DNA of 64,000 nt from a virus (lineage: Duplodnaviria > Caudoviricetes), in IMG/VR virus record IMGVR_UViG_3300033067_001302, positions 1 through 64,000 of that record; one strand, given 5' to 3'. A program made the position numbers and the translations under genes. This document shows, one piece after another, positions 177-58,589 of the stretch. The notes beneath the pieces are model-generated. The model was not told the DNA's origin, did no database searches, and saw nothing but the letters and a program-made list of their open reading frames with translations. Within the stretch, counting starts at the first letter, position 1. Each line of letters opens with the position of its first letter.

Positions 177-323
177 GGGAAATATTATTTCTCCGGTGCA
201 TTTTCACCATCTTTCCCAAGTGATTACGAGATGTTAGGCGAATAGAAGGTTCCAGTTTTGTAAACTTAATCTGGAATCTATTCAGGTCGACATTCAGACA
301 ATTGAGAAACTTGAAAAGCAAAT

Positions 324-581
324 GTGGGGATGGCCGAACCAGTGCGATGCAAGGGCAGTTCCCTTCTTCACTCTTTCCAGTATGATAAGGAAGAGAGGAT
401 TCTCCGGGTCTTCTTCTTGAGCGGCTACGTCTATGACTACTTCTTTGTCCCTGAAGAGGTTGCAGAGGAGCTTCAAAGACTGGCTGAGCTGGGTGGAGAG
501 AGTCTTGGGAAGTGGTTCGCCAAGAACATCAAGAAGACATTTGAGTACCAGAGAGTAAAGCAGGAAGATGACGACAAATAG
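324..581 (+). CDS. KTSC-domain protein
   Basis: SSLLHSFQYDKEERILRVFFLSGYVYDYFFVP...SLGKWFAKNIKK is a typical KTSC pattern. Confidence 0.8.
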   Translation: MGMAEPVRCKGSSLLHSFQYDKEERILRVFFLSGYVYDYFFVPEEVAEELQRLAELGGESLGKWFAKNIKKTFEYQRVKQEDDDK

Positions 582-1053
582 GTTCTCCGCAAGTGACGAA
601 GGCAAGCTGTTCTACATCATTGGGGATTTCCCGGTGGCGATGTTCGAATTCGACGGTATGGCTTCAGCCGATATCCTGTCGTATCGAGGACTTGTGAACA
701 TTAACAGCAGCGAGACCGCCCTGCTTTACATTGGCTCAAGGGTTCCACAGCCGATCAATGGTAAGGTAGCCACCTTCTACGTCTTCCTCTACGATGAGAA
801 GGTTGTTGGACTCCCAACACATCTCTACGACGAGTCCAGCAATCCAATCATCTTTGTGGAGCTTGGAAAGGACCCCGTCCGTAGCAATGCAAGGTATGGA
901 GACAACCTACCACTTGCTCCAATTGCTATTACTGTTGCCAAGTCGGCGCTGCTCAAGCTTGCTCAGGTCGATAAGGACAGCGAAGCTCAAGAAGAAAAGA
1001 GTGGTTTTGTGAAAACGCTCCGTGAAATGTTCCTGGACTTTTTCAGAGCTTGA
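568..1053 (+). CDS. hypothetical protein
   Basis: 161-aa ORF overlapping the end of the KTSC gene; no motif recognised. Confidence 0.65.
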   Translation: MTTNRFSASDEGKLFYIIGDFPVAMFEFDGMASADILSYRGLVNINSSETALLYIGSRVPQPINGKVATFYVFLYDEKVVGLPTHLYDESSNPIIFVELGKDPVRSNARYGDNLPLAPIAITVAKSALLKLAQVDKDSEAQEEKSGFVKTLREMFLDFFRA

Positions 1054-1941
1054 TCACTCGGGATCAGCCGACTTACGGATGACCCAGTTGATGTCGTTCA
1101 CTTGGTAAGGAACTCCTACCTCGGCGCAGAACGCCTTGACACACGTCCAACCTTTGTACTGCTTCAACTTGCCTTTGAGCAGTAGTGACAGCCTTGCGGC
1201 ATACAAGCCATGAGCAAGAGCGAACTGTTTCACATTCACAACCTCGTAGAAAACTTCGCCAGTTGGAGAGTAAAGTAAAATGTCTTTGACGTGCAAGTAG
1301 TGGCGCACTTCCCCTTGTTTGAACTCCGTTCTCGGCGACGAATGCTTTCCGAGATGAGCTTCTCGCATCCCGTGGACATACTCGGGTGTTTGCCACTTTT
1401 CTTTCATGCGCGCGTGATTTGCAAGTCCGATTTTCTGGCGGTGCTCCTGTGTGAGAGACTTACCTCTTGTTGGACTTGGACGCCCATACATTGGATTCTT
1501 CTCACCTTTGTGCCCCGGATGACCTGCTTTGAACTGAGAAGCGATCATGTTGGGATTTGTTAGGGCGCGCAAGCGACAGTTTTCCTTAAAGGTCAAAGAG
1601 CGTGAAGGTTCATAAGAAGCTCGGTCAGCTTTCTTGCGAATGTTCAAGATGCCCGAGCACCAAAGTGCGTCTAGGTATTCCTGCTCTTTTTGCTGTCGCT
1701 GCAATTCAGTAGATGCTTCCATCACCTCCAGCACTTCAAATACGAAACTACCTTCCCCATACTTGTTGAAGCAGTTTTGCATTTTCTTGCTGTGATGTGT
1801 TCCCCTCCTCAAAGAGGACAAATGCCCCCGAAGTCGCCTTTTGAACTCTTTACAGCTTCCGATATAGAAGCTTCCGTTCGCGCGACAAGTGATTTTGTAA
1901 ATGCCGGATTTCTTGCTGTGCTGGTTGTATGAAACTTCCAC
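1054..1941 (-). mobile_element. GIY-YIG homing endonuclease with NUMOD-type repeats, fused to the displaced C-terminus of the methyltransferase
   Basis: SGIYKITCRANGSFYIGS...R...H...EQEYLD. The last 28 aa (VKAFCAEVGVPYQVNDINWVIRKSADPE) copy the C-terminus of the upstream gene. CTACTTA lies 5 nt before the GTG. Confidence 0.9.
1072..1141 (-). repeat. recoded 70-nt duplicate of 1967..2036 (methyltransferase 3' end)
   Basis: Manual alignment: 60/70 nt identical. Nine differences are synonymous and one is V/I. Confidence 0.95.
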
Positions 1942-1963
1942 ACAACTAAGTAGGGGACCGAAT

Positions 1964-2602
1964 TCACTTACGGATGATCCAGTTAATGTCGTTTACCTGA
2001 TAGGGAACGCCTACTTCCGCGCAGAATGCCTTGACAGCATTAGCCACGCTATCCCAAGGCCAATCATCACCGAAAATAGCGCCGCCAGGAGATAGTAGCT
2101 CCCAATAAGCGATAAGGTCGTCATACACATCCTTTTCGTCGTGACTTCCATCAATGTAGATCAAATCAGCCTGGAGTTCGAAGTCCCGCAAAAAGGAAGC
2201 TCCAATTTGGCTTGGCATCGACAATGGAACGATCTTGTCAGCACACCCGGCTTGGATCATGTTGCTCAAGAACCTCTTGTAGAAGGTTGGGCGGCCATTC
2301 TCCATTTCAAGGTGCTTCTTGAGCTCAGGATCTCTCCAGTGCTCCTTCGAACCGAGCCAAGTATCAATGCAGATCACAGCCGTGTCAAGGTCCAAGGCTG
2401 TACAGGAGTTCGCAAGGTTGGCTGCGCTCAATCCCATCCAGCTACCAACCTCAATGATCAACTTGGGACGGAGATGACTCACCAAACCTGGGAAGATTTG
2501 CCTGTCTCCGTTCCAACCCCAAAGGCGAGTTCCTGGGACGGCAGAGAAGTCCTCGAAAGCGTCCGAGAGCTCTAGTTTTGCAAGGAGTTCCTTCTTGTTC
2601 AT
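1964..2602 (-). CDS. class I SAM-dependent methyltransferase (Methyltransf_24-like)
   Basis: IIEVGSWMGLS, DLIYIDGSH, LSPGGAIFGDDW. The ATG at 2602 overlaps the upstream TGA. Confidence 0.85.
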   Translation of the reverse strand: MNKKELLAKLELSDAFEDFSAVPGTRLWGWNGDRQIFPGLVSHLRPKLIIEVGSWMGLSAANLANSCTALDLDTAVICIDTWLGSKEHWRDPELKKHLEMENGRPTFYKRFLSNMIQAGCADKIVPLSMPSQIGASFLRDFELQADLIYIDGSHDEKDVYDDLIAYWELLSPGGAIFGDDWPWDSVANAVKAFCAEVGVPYQVNDINWIIRK

Positions 2603-2811
2603 CGTCTTTCCTTCAAAGAAATGCAAATCAACTTCGTCTTGGAGCCCGGAATGAATCCAACCGTGTAGTTGTACATCCGGTTGAACTCATCTCCCATAGC
2701 CACGATCTCGTGCATCGCTTCTGGTGTGAAAGTCAAGGAAAAAGTGAAATCCACGCCTTTCCCTCTCACAGCATCGTGACGAGCACGAATGAGCTCGCGC
2801 ACAGTTGCCAT
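2599..2811 (-). CDS. hypothetical protein
   Basis: 70-aa ORF with stop/start overlaps on both sides. Confidence 0.65.
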   Translation of the reverse strand: MATVRELIRARHDAVRGKGVDFTFSLTFTPEAMHEIVAMGDEFNRMYNYTVGFIPGSKTKLICISLKERR

Positions 2812-3155
2812 CAGTTGGCCTGAGCTTTCTCCCGCTTGCCAACAAGCTTACCAGTTGTCGGATCGCGAGAAATCACAATGTCTTCCTCTGGTTCCTCAAC
2901 TTCATCGGTAGCCAGTGTAACAACTTGAGCCCTTGCCTTCTCCTCGGCTTGCCTCTGGAGAGCTTCGCCCATCTCGTTCCAACCCTTCACGTAATCCTCC
3001 GAAAGGATCAGAACGCCAGGATTCGCTTCGCTTTCCTCAAGGCGGACAGCTCGGCAGTGATCAACGACGCTCTGTTGCGTGATGATGCACATTGTCAAGA
3101 GCTCACGGATTTGACCAACTACTTGGTCGCTGAACTTGTAGACCTTCTTAGTCAT
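2811..3155 (-). CDS. hypothetical protein
   Basis: 114-aa ORF within the operon. Confidence 0.7.
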   Translation of the reverse strand: MTKKVYKFSDQVVGQIRELLTMCIITQQSVVDHCRAVRLEESEANPGVLILSEDYVKGWNEMGEALQRQAEEKARAQVVTLATDEVEEPEEDIVISRDPTTGKLVGKREKAQAN

Positions 3156-3185
3156 TGCTTTTTTCCTTAGTCATGGCTAGAGTGT

Positions 3186-4004
3186 TTACTGCTTCGCGAC
3201 TTGTTCAAGCCTTTCCTTGTAAAGCTTCAGGGCTTCCAGGGCTTCCGCGGGGATGTTCTCTGGAATAGAGTTTTCCAGGTCGATTCGGATGATCAAATCC
3301 CCGACCCTGGTCTCGTTGGGCCCCCTTGGGATTCCACCACCGGCAACCCTCATGGGAGACAGGGGTTGAAACCCAGCAGGGATCTTCAACTCCTTCTTAG
3401 TCCCATCAAGGAGTGTTACAGTCTTGGTTCCACCAAGAACCAAGGTTGGGTAATCAACCGGCACAGCCGTGAGAACATCGCCATTGTGGCCGAACTTGTA
3501 TGGTCCATTGACTCGGAAGGAAACAATCAGTTCGACACGAGTTCCTTCAATCTCCTCTCGGAAAATCAAGGAAATGCCATCCCTGCAACCCTTCGGGAAC
3601 TTGAATTTCTGAATGTGCTCGTATGGAGTGGATTCAAGCCCTTTGCCGACACGACGAGTCTTAACCAAGTTGATCGGCACTTCCCTCTCGCCACCCTCAA
3701 GGACTTCCTTGATTGAAATGTCGATGGTGATGCCAGTCCTGATTGTCCTATTGACGAAAGCATTGGCGAAAGCGTACTCAAATGGGTCAAATGCAGGCCC
3801 GTTCAAGGAATAGTCATACTCCTGCCTCTTCTGTGGATCAGAAAGAGTGGAGTACGCTTCGTTGACTTCCTTCATCTTGGCTTCCGCCGTACTATCCCCA
3901 GGGTTGCGATCGGGATGGTACTTCTTTGCCAATTCCCTGTAAGCAGCCTTGATCTCTTCGGGGGTAGCTTCAGGCGAAATGCCCAGGATCTCGTAGAACG
4001 TCAC
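3186..4004 (-). CDS. dnaJ: DnaJ-like co-chaperone (J domain plus C-terminal domain, no zinc finger)
   Basis: FYEILGIS...[17 protein letters not shown]...[11 protein letters not shown]; C-terminal GDLIIRI. Confidence 0.9.
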
Positions 4005-4495
4005 AGCTTCTTCTTCCTTTTCTTCCCGGTAAACTGAACTCCACCAACGGGAGCCTTCTGGTTAGCAGCCGATTCAAGAATCCCATTGGCAACCATAGCA
4101 GCCAAGGAGCCACCTGTCATCGTAGGGAGCGGAGGAGGAGGAGGAAGAGTTGAAACACGGCCTACGTCAGCTTCAAGTTGGCTTCGGGCTTTCTCGACCC
4201 TTCTAAGGCCCAACAGGCCGTATCCAGCAATGTCCTGGTAGGGAGACTCTCCAAGGGCATCCCTGTCAGTCGCAATTCGTTTCATCTTGTCGAAGATGCG
4301 CACCAACGCCAGAGCGTCACCGTACTGAGAAGGTTGGATTCCATTTGGATAGAGCAAACGCAAGAACTCCCCTGCGTCGTCAAAGCTAGATCCATAGGCA
4401 GCGTTCTTCACGTCAACAAGTGCTCCGACCCTCTGGCCGAGCGATTCGTAGTTTTCCTTTGTCATGGGGACTACCGTAGTCCCTGTTCGACCCAA
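4001..4495 (-). CDS. nucleotide-modification-associated domain 1 (DUF1599-like) protein
   Basis: KNAAYGSSF...RIFDKMKRI...[13 protein letters not shown] motif pattern. Confidence 0.65.
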
Positions 4496-4497
4496 AG

Positions 4498-4983
4498 TTA
4501 ACCGATGCGGTCGTAAATCAGGTACGAATGTGTTGAGAGGACTTTGCTCTCAACAATCTTCCACTTTGTGGTATCAAGGGAAGGGAAAAAGGCATCACCT
4601 GGATGCCGTCCGTATACCCTTGTAAGGTATACCCTGGAGGCAAATGGGAGAGCTTGACTGTAGATGTCAGCTCCGCCAATCACCATAACCTCGGCTCCTT
4701 GGGAGAAAAGAGTTGCAAGTCCCAATGCCTCTTCCCAGGACCTAGCAATGTGAATGCCAGTACCCTCAAGAAGAGAACGACTCAGGACGATATTCCATCT
4801 GTTTGGAAGTGGCTTTCCAATGGACTCATAAGTCTTACGACCCATGATAACGCTCTTCCCAAGAGTGAGCTCCTTGAACCTTTTCAGGTCCCCAGGAGCA
4901 TCCCAGCTAGGGAGAGAGCCGTGGTGCCCAATGACCCCATCATCGTCCGCAGCCACAATCAAGCTTACTTTTGTTTCCATCAT
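4498..4983 (-). CDS. folA: dihydrofolate reductase
   Basis: SLIVAA...VIG...LP.W..PGDLKRFKELT...VIMGRKTYESIGKPLPNR...VIGGADIY. Start reassigned to MMETKV. Confidence 0.95.
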   Translation of the reverse strand: MMETKVSLIVAADDDGVIGHHGSLPSWDAPGDLKRFKELTLGKSVIMGRKTYESIGKPLPNRWNIVLSRSLLEGTGIHIARSWEEALGLATLFSQGAEVMVIGGADIYSQALPFASRVYLTRVYGRHPGDAFFPSLDTTKWKIVESKVLSTHSYLIYDRIG

Positions 4984-5011
4984 ACCATAGAGAGTCGCGC
5001 TCGGTTGAAAC

Positions 5012-5185
5012 TCAACCTCCAGCAGTAGGATGAAGTTGGTCAACCTGCAATTTCAGTTTGATCACCGTGAATCGAAAAGGTGACTTGTGCCTGTAATTCA
5101 AGTAGAAAACCAGCCCAGCAGGTCGGTTCATCGGTTGGATCGCTACAATTTGCGACGCTATGGCTGGGAAAATGTTCCTCAGCAC
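5012..5185 (-). CDS. 57-aa miniature paralog of the major capsid protein Gol-like segment
   Basis: Hand translation from GTG: MLRNIFPAIASQIVAIQPMNRPAGLVFYLNYRHK. It aligns to the window's own MCP segment IVRRVFAGLVANEVVSVQPMSLPSGLLFYLDY. Confidence 0.75.
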   Translation of the reverse strand: MLRNIFPAIASQIVAIQPMNRPAGLVFYLNYRHKSPFRFTVIKLKLQVDQLHPTAGG

Positions 5186-6831: not shown

Positions 6832-7879
6832 TCGCTGCGTGCGACTGATAGTCGTTCAGCTTGACGTGTTCCAAACGGAAATCATCAATGTTCTTGATTG
6901 ATGGGTCAAGCCAAAGTTGAGGCAACGGAAGTGGGGCGCGCGTCAATTGCTCTTTGACTTGCTCTAGATGAGTTTCATAGACATGCAGGTCTCCAAAGGT
7001 ATGGACAAACTCCCCAACTTCCAAACCCGTCACCTGGGCGATCATATGGGTCAGGAGAGCGTAGGAAGCGATGTTGAATGGAACTCCCAGGAAGGCATCA
7101 GCGCTCCTCTGGTAAAGCTGGCAATTCAACCTCGTTCCACCATGAGACACCCGGAACTGGAACAGGGTATGGCATGGGGGCAAGCTCACTTGATCGCAGG
7201 TTGCAGGGTTCCAACCCGTGACAATCAACCTGCGGCAAGACGGATTCGTCTTGATTCGCTCGATCACACGAGCAATTTGGTCAATTTTAGAGCGCTTTGG
7301 TGGTATCTCCGCGACAACCTTTTTTGGGTCCATTGGACCGAGTGGGGCCGAATATGGGGCGGAGTTAATAATGCTGTCGTACTTATCCATCGTTATCGAA
7401 CTCGCTTCGCCATTCTGTATGAGGCCATGCTGAACACCAAGTTTTGACAAAATAACATCAATTTCTTCAACATCTTCGGGAGTTCGAACATCGAATTCCG
7501 TGGCGCGCGAGGGGGAGCTATCAATTGCCTCCCACTTCCTCCACAAAGGACCATAGATAGGTCCCAGGTCGCCTTCTTCGCGTCCAAACTTCGCGCATTG
7601 CTCCTTGGTGGCCCACTCGTCCCAAATGTGGTTATTCTGGGCTTGGAGGTCCTTGACGTTGCTGCTTCCGCTAAGGAACCAGAGCAACTCCGAGGCAATC
7701 AAGCGGAAAGGAACCCTCTTCGTGGTGAGCAAGGGAAATCCGTCACGGAGGCTTACACGATATTGTCTTCCGAAAACAGAATAATATGCCTCTGCTGTTC
7801 TGCCATTTTGGATCAACTCTCCATTGTCTAGGATGTCTTCAAGAAGACGCTTATAGATTTCATCAATGTGTTCACTCAT
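6809..7879 (-). CDS. thyA: thymidylate synthase with a long internal insertion
   Basis: FPLLTTK, ELLWFLSG, IWDEW, LPPCHTLFQF, QRSADAFLGVPFNIASY. The ATG at 7879 overlaps the stop of the upstream endonuclease. Confidence 0.97.
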   Translation of the reverse strand: MSEHIDEIYKRLLEDILDNGELIQNGRTAEAYYSVFGRQYRVSLRDGFPLLTTKRVPFRLIASELLWFLSGSSNVKDLQAQNNHIWDEWATKEQCAKFGREEGDLGPIYGPLWRKWEAIDSSPSRATEFDVRTPEDVEEIDVILSKLGVQHGLIQNGEASSITMDKYDSIINSAPYSAPLGPMDPKKVVAEIPPKRSKIDQIARVIERIKTNPSCRRLIVTGWNPATCDQVSLPPCHTLFQFRVSHGGTRLNCQLYQRSADAFLGVPFNIASYALLTHMIAQVTGLEVGEFVHTFGDLHVYETHLEQVKEQLTRAPLPLPQLWLDPSIKNIDDFRLEHVKLNDYQSHAAIKGAVAV

Positions 7880-8553
7880 TTGTTTTCCTTTCTGCGCTTC
7901 CAAGCCTCTCTCATCTTCGCTTTAGTCTCTTCGCTTCTTTTGAGTCCAAAGTTTGGATTATTGGAGCCAGTGTTTTGTTCCCGCAATTTCTTTCGGGTTT
8001 CCGCTGATACAGCATGACCAAGCTTTGCTTCAGAAATGGCTTCTCTGTGCTCCTTGGTGAATTCACGACCAATGTGAGATGCCCGTATCCTTTCTTTAGT
8101 TTCTTGACTTTGCGGGTGTCCTTTTCGGCCCGTAAGAGCTGCACTTACTTTCTGGTATCGTTCTTCACCTCTGAGTTGTGCCTTGCTAGCACAACTCATT
8201 TTCAGTTTTGCCTCCGGTGAATGCCGATACCCCAAAGTAGATCCTGCGGTTGGCGAAAGGTTGAAAGAAGAATCCTCACCAAAGAGGAGGTCAATATGTT
8301 CCTGTTCACATTCAATGAGCATCTCTTCTTCCACCAGCTTCACCACTCCAAACACAAACTGCTCAGCCCCGTATTTGTTCCACGAACGCTGAAGTTTCTG
8401 ATTTGGATGTTTTCCTATACGGAGCAAGTAGAAGTGAGCCTTGTAACGTCTTTCAATATCAACAGACGAACCGTAGTATATCTGACCTGTTATCAGATTG
8501 GTAATCGAGTAAACGCCGGAACTCTTGCCAGTGAATTGAGTTACTAGCTTCAT
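7876..8553 (-). mobile_element. GIY-YIG homing endonuclease with NUMOD3-like repeats
   Basis: SGVYSITNLITGQIYYGSS..IERR...H...EQEHID; HSPEAKLKMS-type repeats. Confidence 0.9.
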
Positions 8554-8583
8554 AGTGAGTAGCTTTGGTTTTAGTACCAAACA

Positions 8584-8703
8584 CTAGGGCCCGCGGCGGT
8601 TCTGGTAGCCGAACACGCTGTAGTAGCCTTCCTTGGTCCTGCCATTCCCAATGTATTCGCCATTCTCAAGGATATGGCGGAGCATTTCCTGATATTGCTT
8701 CAC
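8584..8703 (-). pseudogene. thyA: displaced 5' remnant of thyA (39 aa)
   Basis: MKQYQEMLRHILENGEYIGNGRTKEGYYSVFGYQNRRGP* is a ThyA N-terminus. Its GTG overlaps the TGA of the upstream gene. Confidence 0.9.
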
Positions 8704-19675: not shown

Positions 19676-20725
19676 TTATCCGATATTCGAATTTTGAACC
19701 GAGTGGATCAATGCCACTTGCATGTCATAAACAAGGGCATCGTAGTTGATGCTGCTCACAATCTTGGAATTCAGCAGGGATTTGATGAATTCCATCTTGT
19801 TGCAGGTGGGAGAGAAGTTCTCTACAGCGAAGTCAATCTTCTTCATCTGCTCGTAGGACATAGTCGACTCTGTGAGAAACATCAGTTGCCAGTTCCTCCA
19901 AATCATGTCCCCGCAGGAAGCGACGGAACCGTAAGCCTTGAGGGCCTTCTTTTCCATTGACTTGGTCTTGGCAACCTCAACAAGCTCCTGGACGCTTCGG
20001 TCTTTCTCGTTGTCCAGGAGTTCAGGGAAGAGTTTCAAAGCCGTCTTGAAACCAAGTCCTGGGACTCCAGGGATGTTGTCCGAGTCGTCTCCTGTAAGAG
20101 TCCTTACCAAGGCATAGTTCCGAGCCGGGATGTTCACAAATTCATCCTTCCCAACCTTCACCTTCACGATGGGACCACCATGGAGTGATTTGTCCGCAGG
20201 GTTGTAGAGTTGAACATTTGGATCATCCAGGAGTTGGTAGAAATCCCTGTCGGAGGACACAATGACTTTCATTGCGTCGACCGATTTCAGCTTGTTTTGG
20301 ATCAGGTAGGCGATCACATCGTCGCATTCGGTATCTGCAACGTAAAGTTGACACACAGGGAGGTGCTTGAGAGCAGCCACAAGGTTCTTGGTCTGCGTCA
20401 ACTTGTTCTCCTTGTCGTCCTTGATCCACTTCTTCGAAGGGACTCCATTGGGAGGAAGACCAATGGCCTTGAACTCCGAGCTCACCTTCATCCGGTTGGC
20501 TTTGTACTCAGGGAAAATCTTCCTTCTCCTGGGACATCCCCCGCCTTGCTCCCAAACGACGTATAGGCGCACTGGGTTGAACTGTTGGGTGAGAGAGTGC
20601 AGAGCCTTGATGAACCCAACAACTCCCCCGCATGGGTCCCCTACGGTCGTTACGGCGTCATTCGCCATGAAGTGCCTCACGAAGATGTTCATAGAATCGA
20701 CTATTAAGATTGGCCTTTCGTTCAT
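19676..20725 (-). CDS. 5'-3' exonuclease / T4 RNase H-like
   Basis: ILIVDSMN, RKIFPEYKANR, ECDDVI, SSDRDFYQL, GDDSDNIPGV. The ATG at 20725 overlaps the HNH stop (TAATG). Confidence 0.93.
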   Translation of the reverse strand: MNERPILIVDSMNIFVRHFMANDAVTTVGDPCGGVVGFIKALHSLTQQFNPVRLYVVWEQGGGCPRRRKIFPEYKANRMKVSSEFKAIGLPPNGVPSKKWIKDDKENKLTQTKNLVAALKHLPVCQLYVADTECDDVIAYLIQNKLKSVDAMKVIVSSDRDFYQLLDDPNVQLYNPADKSLHGGPIVKVKVGKDEFVNIPARNYALVRTLTGDDSDNIPGVPGLGFKTALKLFPELLDNEKDRSVQELVEVAKTKSMEKKALKAYGSVASCGDMIWRNWQLMFLTESTMSYEQMKKIDFAVENFSPTCNKMEFIKSLLNSKIVSSINYDALVYDMQVALIHSVQNSNIG

Positions 20726-21393
20726 TAATTTACCTTCTTTGCAAAAGTGTCTGTCTTGCGATGGCAGTCGTCGCATAGAGTTCGTCCATTGTCAAACTCC
20801 CACAACTCACAGCATTCCAAAGCATCCTCCAATGTTTTCACTGAATTCTCCTTGAGAATCAAGGCGAACTGTTTAATGTGGTCCGCATTAAGAGTTCCAC
20901 CCCGATGATTGCAGAACTTGCAGGTGTAGTTGTCTCGTTCAAACACCTTCTTCCTCCAGTCTTGCATTTTCACACAATCACGAATTTGCTTGTAAAGAGG
21001 AGATTTTCGTTGCTCGGGCGGCAACCATCGAGGGTGATTTGGTCCAATGTACTTGCCACCCCACATACCATTTTTCGCAACAGACATCCTGCGCTTGGTT
21101 TCTTCGGAGAAGACAATACCTTTTCGCTTTTCACTCATCAAAGCCGCATGTTCTGGGCGCACTTTACCAAAAAATGGATGATTTACTCCACTTTTGGCTT
21201 TTGCTTGCTTTTCCTTTGTTCGAGCAGTATGCTTCGTTGATAAACGAGCTTCAATTCCTGCCTTTTGAATCATATTGCACACAGTTTGTGCAGAACAGCC
21301 AAAGTGATGTGCAATCTCCTTCATTGACCACTGCTCGTCGATATACAGCCGACGCAGCTCTGGTTCTGGAATTATGATTCGCTTCTTCGCCAT
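20725..21393 (-). mobile_element. HNH homing endonuclease with NUMOD3-like repeats
   Basis: WRKKVFERDNYTCKFC...LNADHIK...NGRTLCDDCH. ATAGTTA lies 5 nt upstream. Confidence 0.9.
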
Positions 21394-21401
21394 TGCACTA
21401 A

Positions 21402-21458
21402 CTATGCTCTGACGAAGAGGTTGTATCCATCAATGATAAGGATTGGTCGTTCTTGCAT
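21402..21458 (-). pseudogene. displaced 5' remnant of the 5'-3' exonuclease gene (18 aa)
   Basis: MQERPILIIDGYNLFVRA* versus the working start MNERPILIVDSMNIFVRH: 12/18 identical. Confidence 0.9.
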
Positions 21459-38609: not shown

Positions 38610-39491
38610 ATGAAGTTCAACTACGAAGGTCATTCTCTCAAATCAGGCATCTACAAGCTGGTCAATACTAGCAATGGCCGATTATACATTGGCAGCGCAA
38701 AAGAATTCAAAGAGCGTTGGCAAGCTCATGCACGGCAATTGAAAGCTGGCAAACACTCAAACAAATACCTCCAAAACGACTTCAATAAGTGTGGATCGGA
38801 GGTGTTTGAGTTTCATGTTGTCGAACTAACTGATGTTTCCAAGGAACAGAGGATGCTTCGAGAGCAACACTATTTGGACCAACTCCACGACAACATGGAT
38901 AATTGTTACAACTTCAAAAAACAAGCACAGTCACCGGAAGGTGAAAAGTTTGGGCGTTCAATGAAGGAGATTTGGGAACGGCCCGAGTATCGTGCTCGAC
39001 AATCTGAGATTCAATCTCAACGAACCAAGGAGTTGTGGCAGGACCCCGAGTACCGTGCCAAGCACGAGGAGAAGATTCGAGAGTTCACTCAGACAGAGGA
39101 ATACCGAGAAAAGCTTCGGGAATTCACTAAGGCCCGCTGGGCTAATCCTGAGTTCCGAGAGCAGGTGGCGAGCTCCTTTCAGAGTGAAGAGTTCAAAAAG
39201 AAGGTGGGGGACCACTCCAGGACTCTTTGGCAAGATGAAGAGTATAGAGCCAAGCAATCAGAATCCCGTAAAGCAGCATGGGACTCTGATCCTGAGCGCA
39301 AACGGAAGGCATCTGAGCGGCTGAAAGGCCGAATGGCAAAGACCTACACTCTTCGAAGCCCCGAAGGAGAAGTGGTGACTTTCACCAACATGCAGGCTTT
39401 CTGCTTGGAGCGGGGCCTTCAACCTTCTGGCCTGTGCAAGGTTGCAAATGGCAAATGGGCTTCATACAAGGGATGGACCAAACCTAGTTAG
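38610..39491 (+). mobile_element. GIY-YIG homing endonuclease with W..PEYR repeats
   Basis: SGIYKLVNTSNGRLYIGSAKEFKERW..H; repeats WERPEYR, WQDPEYR, WANPEFR, WQDEEYR. Confidence 0.9.
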
Positions 39492-54939: not shown

Positions 54940-55632
54940 CTAAGTAGCATAGTGGGAAGCATAGACATCTTCGGTATACCCGGAATCAAGCAGCACCACA
55001 CGCTGATCCGGCGTCTTGCCCCAGTGGTCTAGAAGTTGCAAGTCAGCAGGGATCAAGTCAGGGCGATTTGCCAGAGCGGTGAAGAGTCTTCCGATGAATG
55101 GAAGATATTCAATTCCCCGGACTGACATTCCTGGCATTGGATGCCGTGCACGCTTATCAGCTTCAATTTGGGCCTTTACTGTTACATCAAAGGCTCGTCC
55201 AACATCGCCCAACGAGCTGTAGTGACCAAGGAACTTGTACATGAAGTTCCAAGGAACCTGTGTGAGCTGTTCGAACTCCTTTTGATTTTTGAGCGGACGT
55301 ACCAGCTCCGACACCATCCAGGCATCGTTTTGTCCCATCTTGTAAATCCTCGTAACCAAAGGAGCCACACCGGGATTCTGAGCTAGTTCGTACTCTGCTC
55401 TGTTCTGAGCGAGGCCCTTCTCATTCTTAGCGATCTTCAAAGCCCTCTTGCTGTCAAGAAGAAAGGCAGCACGAGACGAACCCTCTCCAAGCAATGGAAG
55501 CTTACCCGCAACGGTAAGGATCATTTGCTCTGGGCTGTCCATCTTGTCGAACATCTCTGGGTTGAACTTTGCCTCTTCAAGCTCTTGAGACTCAAGAAGC
55601 CAGAAGTCCAGGACAGATTTCAGGTTATTCAT
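54940..55632 (-). CDS. divergent protein-kinase-like protein, paralog of 42114..42818
   Basis: LLGEGSSRAAF, ALKIAKN, AQNRAE, DLQLLDHWG, VLLDSG. Confidence 0.72.
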   Translation of the reverse strand: MNNLKSVLDFWLLESQELEEAKFNPEMFDKMDSPEQMILTVAGKLPLLGEGSSRAAFLLDSKRALKIAKNEKGLAQNRAEYELAQNPGVAPLVTRIYKMGQNDAWMVSELVRPLKNQKEFEQLTQVPWNFMYKFLGHYSSLGDVGRAFDVTVKAQIEADKRARHPMPGMSVRGIEYLPFIGRLFTALANRPDLIPADLQLLDHWGKTPDQRVVLLDSGYTEDVYASHYAT

Positions 55633-56281
55633 CGTACAGTGTATTCGCTTTCAGGGTTGGGTCTACATCAACTCGCCTTGGACCATCTCCAAGGGCAGGG
55701 GCAGGAAGGTCATCTCCAAGACGTTCACGAACATCACGGATATCACCTGTCGGACCGTCGCTGTTCTCTGCAATTCCCCTCTGCTGCTCAAATGGAGTTG
55801 GCGGGGTCGTCTCTTCAACTGGCTTGAAGAACTTCTGAGGGTTGAACTCTCCTGGACGGGCAAGCTTCCCGATAACCTTGTAGGCAACATCGTGCTCAAC
55901 CTGCCCAAAGAAGTTGTTCATGTTCAGGTAAGAGACAATCTCGTAAGCGTTATCGCCATAAGTGAAGAAGTCTCCCTCCGAAAGCTCAAGACCCTTTTGA
56001 GCCAAGTCTCTGGCTTGGAGGAACACCTCAAGTGTGTTCTGTTGCTCAGGTCCAAAGGTGGTCATCTTCGTCTCCCACTGGGGCTGTCCAACCAGGGCAT
56101 CGACCTTGATTGGGTTTTCGAAGATTTTCTTCACGGCCTCATTGTACACAGGGTGAATCTTCGTCTTCAGGGTCGAGACAGGCCAGTAGATGATGGCTTG
56201 GCCGACAATGTCCTTGATGAACTCCTTGCCGAGGTCATTGAAGTAGTCGATCTCTTTTTGGGTTACGAACAGCCGTGGCAT
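55625..56281 (-). CDS. neck / head-completion protein (gp14-like)
   Basis: IIYWPVS.LKTKIHPVYNEA, GDFFTYGDNAYEI; located in the neck position. Confidence 0.7.
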   Translation of the reverse strand: MPRLFVTQKEIDYFNDLGKEFIKDIVGQAIIYWPVSTLKTKIHPVYNEAVKKIFENPIKVDALVGQPQWETKMTTFGPEQQNTLEVFLQARDLAQKGLELSEGDFFTYGDNAYEIVSYLNMNNFFGQVEHDVAYKVIGKLARPGEFNPQKFFKPVEETTPPTPFEQQRGIAENSDGPTGDIRDVRERLGDDLPAPALGDGPRRVDVDPTLKANTLYDE

Positions 56282-57273
56282 CTTATTTCTCCTATATCTC
56301 CCCTTCTCTCCTCTTCCTGGTTATCCTCCACTATGAGAAGAGGTTTCAGGAGAACATTTTCCTTAAATAGAATCCACCCCTTGTGGGATTTGATCTTGCC
56401 GGATAGAAGCGAATAGAGGTTCTGCTTTTGCAAACCGTGCGTTTTAGCAAAAGTAGGAATATGGGAAATATTGCGGTAAACAGTTCCGTCTGGTGCCTGC
56501 ACTGAACCATACGTTTTTACGGGCTGAGAGCTATTTCTTTTGACAATATTCTCTCGTCCATGAGCCTGCATCTTCGCTTTGAACTCAGGCTCCAAGGCAA
56601 GTCTGCCTCGGTATGTCTCCGCTCTTTTTCTAACTGATTCCTCGGTATTCAAAGACTTGATTGCGGCTTCTTTGACTTCTGGGTCACTCATCCGGTTCTT
56701 CATCCAAAGAGACATGGTTTCTTGGTGCTCGGGATCATTCCAAATGGTTTGAGCACGCTTGGAGGCCGTTGCTTTACCCTCTTCTGTATTCCAGAACCTC
56801 TTTGCCTTTTCTGCAAGAGTAGACCGATATACCTCATTCTCCCAAACCTTCTTCATCGAATCACTTTTCTTCGCCTTGGTCTCCTCGGGGGTGTTGGAAT
56901 AACAGCTACGTTCCAATGCTTCTGTTTTTTCCTTGAAGTTGTAGCAAACACGGGAGCCATCGGGAAGAAGAGCATGGTAAATGCTACCAATGTACTCCTC
57001 CTCCCTCTTGTTGCGTTCTTCCTTGGTAGATCCTTCCAGCACCTCTAGGACATGAAACTCAAGGAAATCATCATGACCCAACGCTTCCTTGCACTTGTTG
57101 AAGTCGGCTTGGAGAAATTTGTTCTGGTGTTTGCCCTTCAAAAGTGAGGACGCATGGCTGCGCCACCGACTCTTAAACTCTTTGGCTTGACCAATGTATT
57201 GGCGACCTGTGTGAATATTGAGAATCCTGTAGATTCCTGAAGCTTTCGAGTGCCCACCGTAGATTAATTTCAT
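56263..57273 (-). mobile_element. GIY-YIG homing endonuclease
   Basis: SGIYRILNIHTGRQYIGQAKEFKSRW..H; NUMOD1-like C-terminus (HGLQKQNL...HKGW). Confidence 0.9.
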
Positions 57274-57329
57274 AACTACACCATTCCTTTGAGAGGTAGC
57301 ATAGTTCAAAGGGGGACGTTTTGCAGCCC

Positions 57330-58589
57330 CTAAAAACACTTTATAGCATGAGTCGGAGGCATGGGGAGGAAGGAAAGTTGCTTCATCAGGTTCTCGGCCT
57401 TCTGAGCTTCCATCTCTTGGAGCTTGTCGTAGGACAGGGACTCAAGCTGACCCTTGAGTTCCTCGATGAGCTTGGTCTGGTCTTCTCTGGCTTCCTGAAC
57501 GAGCTCAGAGCCATCCAGTTCGAGGTCAGCATTTGGAATGGGGATACGCTTGACCTTACGACGGACACGACCCATGATCTCCAGAGCAAGAGCAAAAGTC
57601 ATTCTAGCAATCCAGTTCTTTGCCCACTGGTTGAGGGTTGCGTAGTTCACAAGACCGAATGGGATGTTGGCAGGATTGGAAGCTCCTGCTGCCACTCCAG
57701 AGAAACCAGAGGAACCTGCAAGCCCTGCTGTTCCGCTGAGTGAGCTGCTGACACCGAGGTCGATGAAGGCTCCATTCACCTGGGCTTGGAAGCCCACTCG
57801 AATCCAAACCTTATTGTTCACCCCTGGGATGATGGAGGTTGGAACGGGAAAGAAACGGATATTCCTGCCGGAAATCTTGTAGGTGTAATGGGATCTTCTC
57901 ACCTTGCTTGCCAGCTTGAGCTGACCAGCACGAAGAACATCCTCGTAGAGTGGAAGGATGTGGAAACGGGTATCCGTGTTGAAGGCTCCCATTGGGATAC
58001 CGACACCTGCTACGTTTCCAAAGTTCGTACCGAATGAGGAGTTGAAGAGATACTGGATTGGAGCGAAGTGGAACACCTCAAAGACACGCATCTTTCCACC
58101 AGAGCCGGAAAGCATGCCGTACAGAGCATTGCCAGCCTCATCCTTCAGGTCAGTGAAAAGGTCGTAATCCTGCTTCCCGGTTACCATGTCAATCGAACCG
58201 GAAAAGGAGTTCTGAGTCGAACCGAAGCCGATGATGTTGGCATAAGGCTCAGCCAACCTATCAAGGAACTCAAGGTTCGGAGCAACGTAGACGTTCGTGA
58301 GATTGATGGTATTCTGGTTGGTCGTGGAATCCCAAGAACCCGTTGGAGTCCCAAGAAGGCTGGCAAGGTTGCTCTTTGTCTGGTATTCGATAACCCAAGA
58401 GTTGAATCTCCAGGTCGCCTCCTCAAAGCAAGACCAAATTTCCTTCTTCGACAACTCAGTCGAAAGCGTGGTCTCCCCAGCCTTGCGCTTGACGTAAGTC
58501 ACCATGGAATCAGCATCCCTTTGGAACGCTGGGTCTGAGTCGAATAGCCCAAACGATGTTGGTCGAGGAGTGGTTACGAACGTTGCCAT
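57330..58589 (-). CDS. neck protein (gp13-like)
   Basis: VKRKAG...ELSKKEIWSCFEEA, W..RMTFALALEIMGRVRRK..RIPIP...LDGSEL. Confidence 0.8.
   Translation of the reverse strand: MATFVTTPRPTSFGLFDSDPAFQRDADSMVTYVKRKAGETTLSTELSKKEIWSCFEEATWRFNSWVIEYQTKSNLASLLGTPTGSWDSTTNQNTINLTNVYVAPNLEFLDRLAEPYANIIGFGSTQNSFSGSIDMVTGKQDYDLFTDLKDEAGNALYGMLSGSGGKMRVFEVFHFAPIQYLFNSSFGTNFGNVAGVGIPMGAFNTDTRFHILPLYEDVLRAGQLKLASKVRRSHYTYKISGRNIRFFPVPTSIIPGVNNKVWIRVGFQAQVNGAFIDLGVSSSLSGTAGLAGSSGFSGVAAGASNPANIPFGLVNYATLNQWAKNWIARMTFALALEIMGRVRRKVKRIPIPNADLELDGSELVQEAREDQTKLIEELKGQLESLSYDKLQEMEAQKAENLMKQLSFLPMPPTHAIKCF

Follow-up and report, generated by a model that had tools for sequence, protein, structure and literature searches.

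Homing elements that carry a substitute for the end of the gene they invade are established in yeast and in fungal mitochondria. In Torulaspora and Lachancea, the WHO unit consists of a nuclease gene and a replacement FBA1 3′ end that confers resistance, and the displaced fragment serves as a recombination arm; at the cut site, the identity of FBA1 drops from 99% to 85% (Coughlan et al., 2020; PMC7282813). In fungal mitochondria, mORF hybrid genes have been reported for atp6 of Allomyces macrogynus and for atp6, atp9, cox2 and nad3 of Glomus (Beaudet et al., 2013; PMC3630166). Among phages, the Seg (GIY-YIG) and Mob (HNH) elements of T4 carry out intronless homing (Edgell et al., 2010; PMC2988022), and one-sided homologous repair with an illegitimate junction was obtained experimentally in T4 intron homing (Parker et al., 1999, as summarised in PMC2988022). 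Duplication or replacement of a gene end is not described in this review of T4 homing, in which the stem "duplicat" occurs 0 times (PMC2988022), and a limited search of the full-text literature returned no description of gene-end replacement in a phage.

The locus considered here belongs to an uncultured phage and lies within a 64-kb window (the term denotes the whole stretch of DNA analysed, 64,000 nt), where a GIY-YIG nuclease gene (HEG) is placed between two copies of the 3′ end of a methyltransferase gene. The best explanation of this locus, with its observed anatomy, empty site, foreign gene end, recent cassette transfer and occupation of one site by several deep HEG lineages, is a free-standing GIY-YIG homing cassette inside the methyltransferase 3′ end, a reading to which we assign a probability of roughly 0.87 and in which the activity of the enzyme, its cut site and the roles of the two copies are what we infer.

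Of these systems, the WHO element comes closest in mechanism. In both systems a replacement 3′ end (hereafter the new end) lies upstream of the nuclease gene and the old end downstream, identity drops sharply within the host gene (here from 97% to 84%), the two parts of that gene have discordant phylogenies, and old copies decay. The WHO proteins, however, are intein-like LAGLIDADG enzymes with a zinc finger operating in diploid meiosis, whereas the present protein is a phage GIY-YIG enzyme presumably operating during co-infection; in WHO the nuclease ORF stays separate from the displaced fragments, whereas the old end is fused here, and no stacked cluster of old ends, as found in WHO, was seen at this locus. 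Cleavage has been demonstrated for WHO and is predicted for the phage element. With the mitochondrial mORFs, the locus shares a foreign C-terminal segment, an endonuclease ORF, a native remnant identical or nearly identical to the end found in an ORF-less relative, and an inserted copy whose DNA has diverged while its protein sequence is conserved; the enzyme in the atp9 case is likewise of the GIY-YIG family. The mORFs differ in residing in organelle genomes, and in the phage the host gene has its own stop while it is the HEG that is fused to the downstream remnant. As with the T4 elements, the enzyme is free-standing and related to I-TevI, flanking markers are co-converted, several HEG paralogues occur per genome, and the upstream motif also precedes virion genes, matching the late or middle promoters of T4 HEGs; the T4 elements, however, occupy intergenic positions or divide a gene into two parts that still function, whereas here a gene end is replaced.

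Since yeast and fungal mitochondria already provide the mechanism, the locus is valuable as a clear-cut example from a phage and as a nuclease paired with a target that can be tested, rather than as a new principle. It holds an unusually complete record, comprising an empty allele, three deeply diverged nuclease lineages, one recent transfer and stages of decay, and it illustrates how a free-standing endonuclease would colonise a locus that has no intergenic room without destroying the host gene. Cassettes of this kind would make phage gene ends evolve discordantly with gene bodies and, in annotation, would appear as chimeric gene ends, false C-terminal extensions of nucleases and short pseudogene scars.

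Anatomy of the methyltransferase and nuclease genes

All the genes concerned, the methyltransferase and the HEG, are encoded on the minus strand. The methyltransferase gene (1964..2626, minus strand) encodes a class-I, SAM-dependent enzyme (Pfam Methyltransf_24, E = 2e-17; RMNT_CmcI) and is chimeric, combining a resident body with a foreign 3′ end. The mechanically defined ORF starts at TTG 2626 and comprises 220 aa; homologues and the gene call in the independently assembled relative L064 place the start eight codons later, at ATG 2602 (MNKKELL), giving 212 aa, and this shorter form is likely the real gene. When the 220-aa ORF is aligned end to end with its homologues, the foreign end is in frame and the product full-length, and several natural methyltransferase alleles likewise stop directly after IRK or IYK. 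Two full-length methyltransferase homologues, each about 50% identical to the query, were also observed in tandem on the metagenomic contigs L021 (1200-2494) and L022 (2501-3795). On the other side of the locus, a convergent ORF of 161 aa assigned to no family (568..1053, plus strand) has its stop abutting that of the old end, with 0 bases between them, so that a HEG-less locus has no non-coding room 3′ of the methyltransferase.

A preliminary description of this DNA, drawn from its letters and translated ORFs, had reported a repeat with 60 of 70 nt identical and nine of ten differences silent. A repeat search with alignment recovered a direct repeat of 71 nt (1071-1141 and 1966-2036) with 61 identical positions (86%), a spacing of 895 nt and the same nine-plus-one pattern. 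The upstream copy (1966..2036, minus strand) consists of the terminal 23 codons of the functional methyltransferase gene with one base on either side. Read in frame, the 23 codons (1967-2035 and 1072-1140) give VKAFCAEVGVPYQVNDINW[I/V]IRK, and the ten differences between them comprise nine synonymous changes and one conservative replacement (ATC/GTC, I/V). The formal count of synonymous versus non-synonymous differences that the description had proposed yields a strong silent bias: by the Nei-Gojobori method, the 23 codons hold 14.5 synonymous and 54.5 non-synonymous sites, with pS 0.62 and pN 0.018 (Fisher P = 7e-7), and random sets of ten substitutions alter at most one residue with a probability of 5e-6. 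The repeated segment is highly conserved across all methyltransferase homologues, and the longest identical run between its two copies measures 12 nt.

The positions of the two copies relative to the genes also agreed with the description, according to which the upstream copy stops at IRK, with a CTACTTA motif and the nuclease start just beyond, and the downstream copy lies in the GIY-YIG frame and ends SADPE-stop. The upstream copy closes the methyltransferase ORF at IRK-TGA (TGA 1964-1966) and is followed by a spacer of 22 nt (1942..1963, minus strand), made up of 10 nt, the motif CTACTTA (1947-1953) and a further 5 nt before the HEG start. ORF translation places the downstream copy in frame with the GIY-YIG ORF (1054..1941, 295 aa), where it continues with SADPE and a stop. 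The methyltransferase ORF being closed by its TGA 22 nt ahead of the HEG start, the HEG is not carried in an intron or an intein; an Rfam search over 500-3200 returned no family at E ≤ 1, neither a group I intron nor another RNA.

The HEG ORF opens at GTG 1941 and ends at 1054. Its N-terminus matches the Pfam GIY-YIG family (PF01541, E = 6.6e-10, 39.6 bits against a cut-off of 22.6), residues 11-74 match the catalytic domain of I-TevI (1MK0, E = 1.7e-10), and G13, Y15, Y26, G28, R36, H40, E86 and N100 are invariant in an alignment of five homologues; judged by these features the gene looks intact, and its product is a predicted nuclease. On the C-terminus, NUMOD3 scored 15.3 bits, below the cut-off of 20.4, and a block of the form SP.G.V...FA..HGL...LL.GK...YKGWT is common to this HEG, its paralogues and the HEG of a close relative (L011). 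The native part of the free-standing HEG (1142..1941, minus strand) covers residues 1-267, ends in YKGWTC and has no stop of its own. The resident old end (1054..1141, minus strand; VKAF...IRKSADPE-stop), fused to it in frame, supplies the last 28 residues (268-295) and the stop codon.

A GIY-YIG paralogue of 293 aa elsewhere in the window (38610-39491, plus strand), flanked by a 1554-aa tape-measure-like gene and a GNAT-like gene, has a normal end, YKGWTKPS-stop. Because the paralogues end in this way, the HEG type found in the window appears to have lost its last codons and stop at the junction. The in-frame fusion of HEG and old end is kept in the window, in L064 and in L011. It may nonetheless be secondary, since in another relative (L065) the old-end remnant begins 2-4 codons further upstream than the junction of the window type; on this alignment the fusion may reflect a deletion, or the insertions may be independent.

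Resident and foreign gene ends

Relatives of the locus comprised five relatives of the methyltransferase in IMG/VR and others drawn from metagenomes and Logan, and all phages compared are uncultured metagenome contigs. In public phage records, a DNA search with 300-3300 gave no match and protein searches recovered just distant HEGs and methyltransferases. The empty site is represented by L010, which has no HEG and is without the 895-nt insert, while its flanks are 95-96% identical to the window at the nucleotide level. Its methyltransferase (225 aa, 4001..4678, plus strand) ends in IRKSADPE-stop and abuts the same convergent gene (4679..5158, minus strand), and the methyltransferase of the window is 98% identical to it in amino acids.

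Over 93 nt, from 1141 down to 1049, the window matches the only 3′ end of L010 at every base (100%). The downstream copy is thus the resident old end, and, given that this copy and the bases that follow equal L010, the window corresponds to L010 plus an insert of 895 nt. This base-for-base match to a HEG-less relative bears out the earlier proposal that the old methyltransferase end had become fused to the endonuclease.

The upstream copy has a different history. Between the window and L010, the methyltransferase is 97% identical in its body (2.8% differences, 16 of 578 nt) and drops to 84% from 2048 onwards, 13 of the 82 nt of the new end (1967..2048, minus strand) being different. The 100 nt immediately before this point (2149-2049) are identical in the window, L010 and L011. 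The diverged stretch thus reaches 12 nt beyond the repeat on its upstream side, and one of its changes is an A/S replacement; within the copy, the states GAA, GGC, GTA, ATT and ATC are those of the upstream copy in L011, several of them occurring also in L013. Because the divergence outruns the repeat and the states match those of other alleles, the upstream copy is best regarded as a natural foreign allele that was shaped by purifying selection on a strongly conserved C-terminus and arrived with the HEG. The same observations, a diverged tract and the states of natural alleles, support the earlier suggestion that both copies had been under protein-level selection before they met. Of the earlier wording "duplicated and synonymously recoded", the duplication is real, whereas recoding in place gives way to a foreign allele in view of the shared states.

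The alternative would be a tandem duplication formed in place around the inserted HEG, one copy of which was then silently recoded by selection without any foreign donor. Two features fit such an origin: the new end keeps a clade-specific AEVG residue despite a silent divergence that is near saturation (pS 0.62), and none of the 11 alleles compared is its exact donor. Recoding confined to a duplicate does not readily account, however, for a diverged tract that passes the repeat and carries a non-synonymous A versus S difference, nor for the five states held in common with L011; moreover, the whole cassette has been transferred horizontally, and the copy left untouched is the non-functional one. 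We therefore consider recoding in place improbable and retain a foreign origin for the new end, while its silent divergence combined with the kept AEVG, which no sampled donor explains, could reflect selection on silent sites.

Transfer, lineages and decay among relatives

The relative L064, an independent Logan assembly found by protein search, carries the same new end and a HEG that is 98% identical in amino acids. Across 1112..2149 (minus strand), it is nearly unchanged from the window, with 12 of 1,038 nt different (1.2%; 98.8% identity), whereas the flanks of the two differ at 31 of 550 nt on the left (5.6%) and at 41 of 412 nt on the right (10%; Fisher P = 6e-7 and 7e-14, respectively, against the tract). 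On this pattern of divergence, 1112..2149 is a recently transferred unit. This one comparison places the end of the low-divergence tract between 1271 and 1111, at the old end or in its first 30 nt, from 1141 to 1111; a crossover would be expected there if the old end is the homology arm. The old end of L064 is exactly the allele of L011 and not that of the window, so that two old-end alleles accompany one cassette, and a single old-end allele accompanies two cassettes that are very different.

In L011 the layout and the junction (YKGWTC followed by VKAF) are those of the window; its methyltransferase body is 97% identical in amino acids and its flanks are 91-95% identical, while its HEG is only 62-65% identical to that of the window in amino acids and about 60% in nucleotides. 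The HEG of the window is equally far (60-64% aa) from those in phages whose methyltransferase is 70-73% identical in amino acids, and these distant phages hold a third HEG lineage. Presence or absence of the HEG also varies between backbones that are 97-98% identical.

Several relatives record later stages. The HEG is truncated in L019, L065 and L066. L019 and L065 retain an old end in decay, which no longer shares the HEG frame in L019, and in L066 there is no old-end remnant. In L065 the remnant amounts to about 70 nt plus 2-4 codons by DNA alignment; a longer remnant suggested by protein alignment was rejected, as it needs a gap of eight residues and the DNA alignment backs the shorter extent. 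The HEGs of L019, L065 and L066 are cut at a similar point, after GKHSSP.TEF, and therefore are without the C-terminal DNA-binding block. In the third HEG lineage, about ten protein clusters (P0002-P0011) measure only 164-255 aa. The widespread truncated HEG may represent a relic in slow decay or a protein that has been domesticated.

Domestication might also be extended to the nuclease as a whole, which would then be defunct and inherited vertically, its fused methyltransferase tail providing a new role such as association with the methyltransferase or its partners. The conservation of the in-frame fusion in the window, L064 and L011 is in keeping with this, as is the sub-clade that retains a truncated HEG of 164-255 aa with a similar cut point in the three loci examined, since persistence can signal domestication. 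Vertical inheritance is nevertheless hard to reconcile with a cassette that is 98.8% identical across backbones differing by 5-10% with its presence-absence polymorphism between nearly identical backbones, and with a tail that is decaying in L019 and L065 and lies outside the HEG frame in L019. We accordingly judge this interpretation unlikely and favour a mobile cassette. That the repeat is an assembly chimera of two co-occurring strains can be dismissed as extremely improbable: the contig is metagenome-derived and close strains do co-occur (L010 and L012 both come from sample 3300015608), but the HEG ORF runs unbroken across the junction and the layout recurs in the independent assemblies L011, L064, L019 and L065, with the same junctions in L064 (SRR12900997) and L011 (3300046786) and decayed ones in ERZ724505 and ERZ18669188.

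Proposed homing mechanism, candidate promoter motif and further cassettes

Under the homing-cassette reading, the mobile unit would comprise a foreign methyltransferase 3′ end of about 82 nt together with its stop, the 22-nt spacer and the HEG. Its insertion would exchange at least the last 23 codons of the host gene for a protein-equivalent copy that is 14% diverged in DNA, and because of this equivalence the methyltransferase would stay intact. The resident end would be displaced downstream and, in the lineage of the window, would have been joined in frame to the stop-less HEG. During co-infection, by analogy with WHO and with an I-TevI-like enzyme, the nuclease would cut HEG-less alleles near the onset of divergence (about 2036-2049), and the break would be repaired from the HEG-bearing genome, copying both the new end and the HEG. 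The left crossover would fall in the conserved block 2149-2049 and the right one in the old end or in the downstream gene, the old end being most likely the right-hand homology arm. The first insertion probably occurred by one-sided, illegitimate repair of a double-strand break, which would yield such a duplication.

The diverged new end would in turn protect its carrier from self-cleavage and, with no identical run longer than 12 nt, would hinder repeat-to-repeat recombination that deletes the HEG. The extent of the transferred tract suggests that the cut likely falls no further than 113 nt upstream or 30 nt downstream of the junction. Since the old end of the carrier keeps the repeated 71 nt unchanged, a target confined to these 71 nt would expose the carrier itself to cleavage, and the target should span or precede the junction. 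The data are compatible with silent differences shielding the site from cleavage, as the WHO model predicts. L010 has a CNNNG cue of the I-TevI style, CCTTG, at 24-20 nt upstream of the junction; it was not taken as evidence, because it is expected by chance and also occurs in HEG-bearing alleles.

A broader proposition combines several of these elements: that the silent divergence of the new end was selected at the level of the selfish element, conferring self-immunity and blocking repeat-mediated excision; that the stop-less fusion locks the homology arm to the nuclease; and that such cassettes are a general, hitherto undescribed way of colonising packed phage genomes, driving the formation of chimeric gene termini. 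Taken jointly, these claims are speculative, and we hold them to be possible rather than probable.

The motif in the spacer is a plausible candidate promoter by its placement. CTACTTA occurs four times in the window, always on the minus strand and with an ORF start following at 5-25 nt, as CTACTTA[GA] at 1947, 54941, 58602 and 63212 ahead of starts at 1941, 54925, 58589 and 63186; the ORFs are, in this order, the HEG, a 406-aa ORF, a 419-aa ORF and a 637-aa capsid-like ORF. Four occurrences compare with 1.4-1.7 expected, and 3-10% of shuffled sequences reach this number, so the count alone is not significant. At the HEG, L064 retains the motif unchanged, L011 has an altered form (CACTAGTTA) and L019 has CATACTTAA. 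The motif may serve in the control of late genes, a role suggested only by its position before ORF starts.

The same layout is found twice more in the window, at thyA and at an exonuclease gene, which brings the total to three cassettes from two nuclease families. In the second case (7876-8703, minus strand), a GIY-YIG gene (7876-8553) lies just upstream of thyA, which starts at about 7879-7903, and is itself preceded by a dead N-terminal thyA fragment (8584-8703) encoding ILENGEYIGNGRTKEGYYSVFGYQ, which resembles the N-terminus of the working thyA, ILDNGELIQNGRTAEAYYSVFGRQ. In the third case (20725-21458, minus strand), an HNH gene (20725-21393) is placed between a dead 18-codon start, MQERPILIIDGYNLFVRA followed by a stop (21402-21458), and a working 5′-3′ exonuclease-like gene beginning MNERPILIVDSMNIFVRH. 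A fourth GIY-YIG paralogue (56263-57339, minus strand) extends 37 residues past HKGWI, reaching into the beginning of the gene that follows (55625..56281), and may represent another stop-less insertion.
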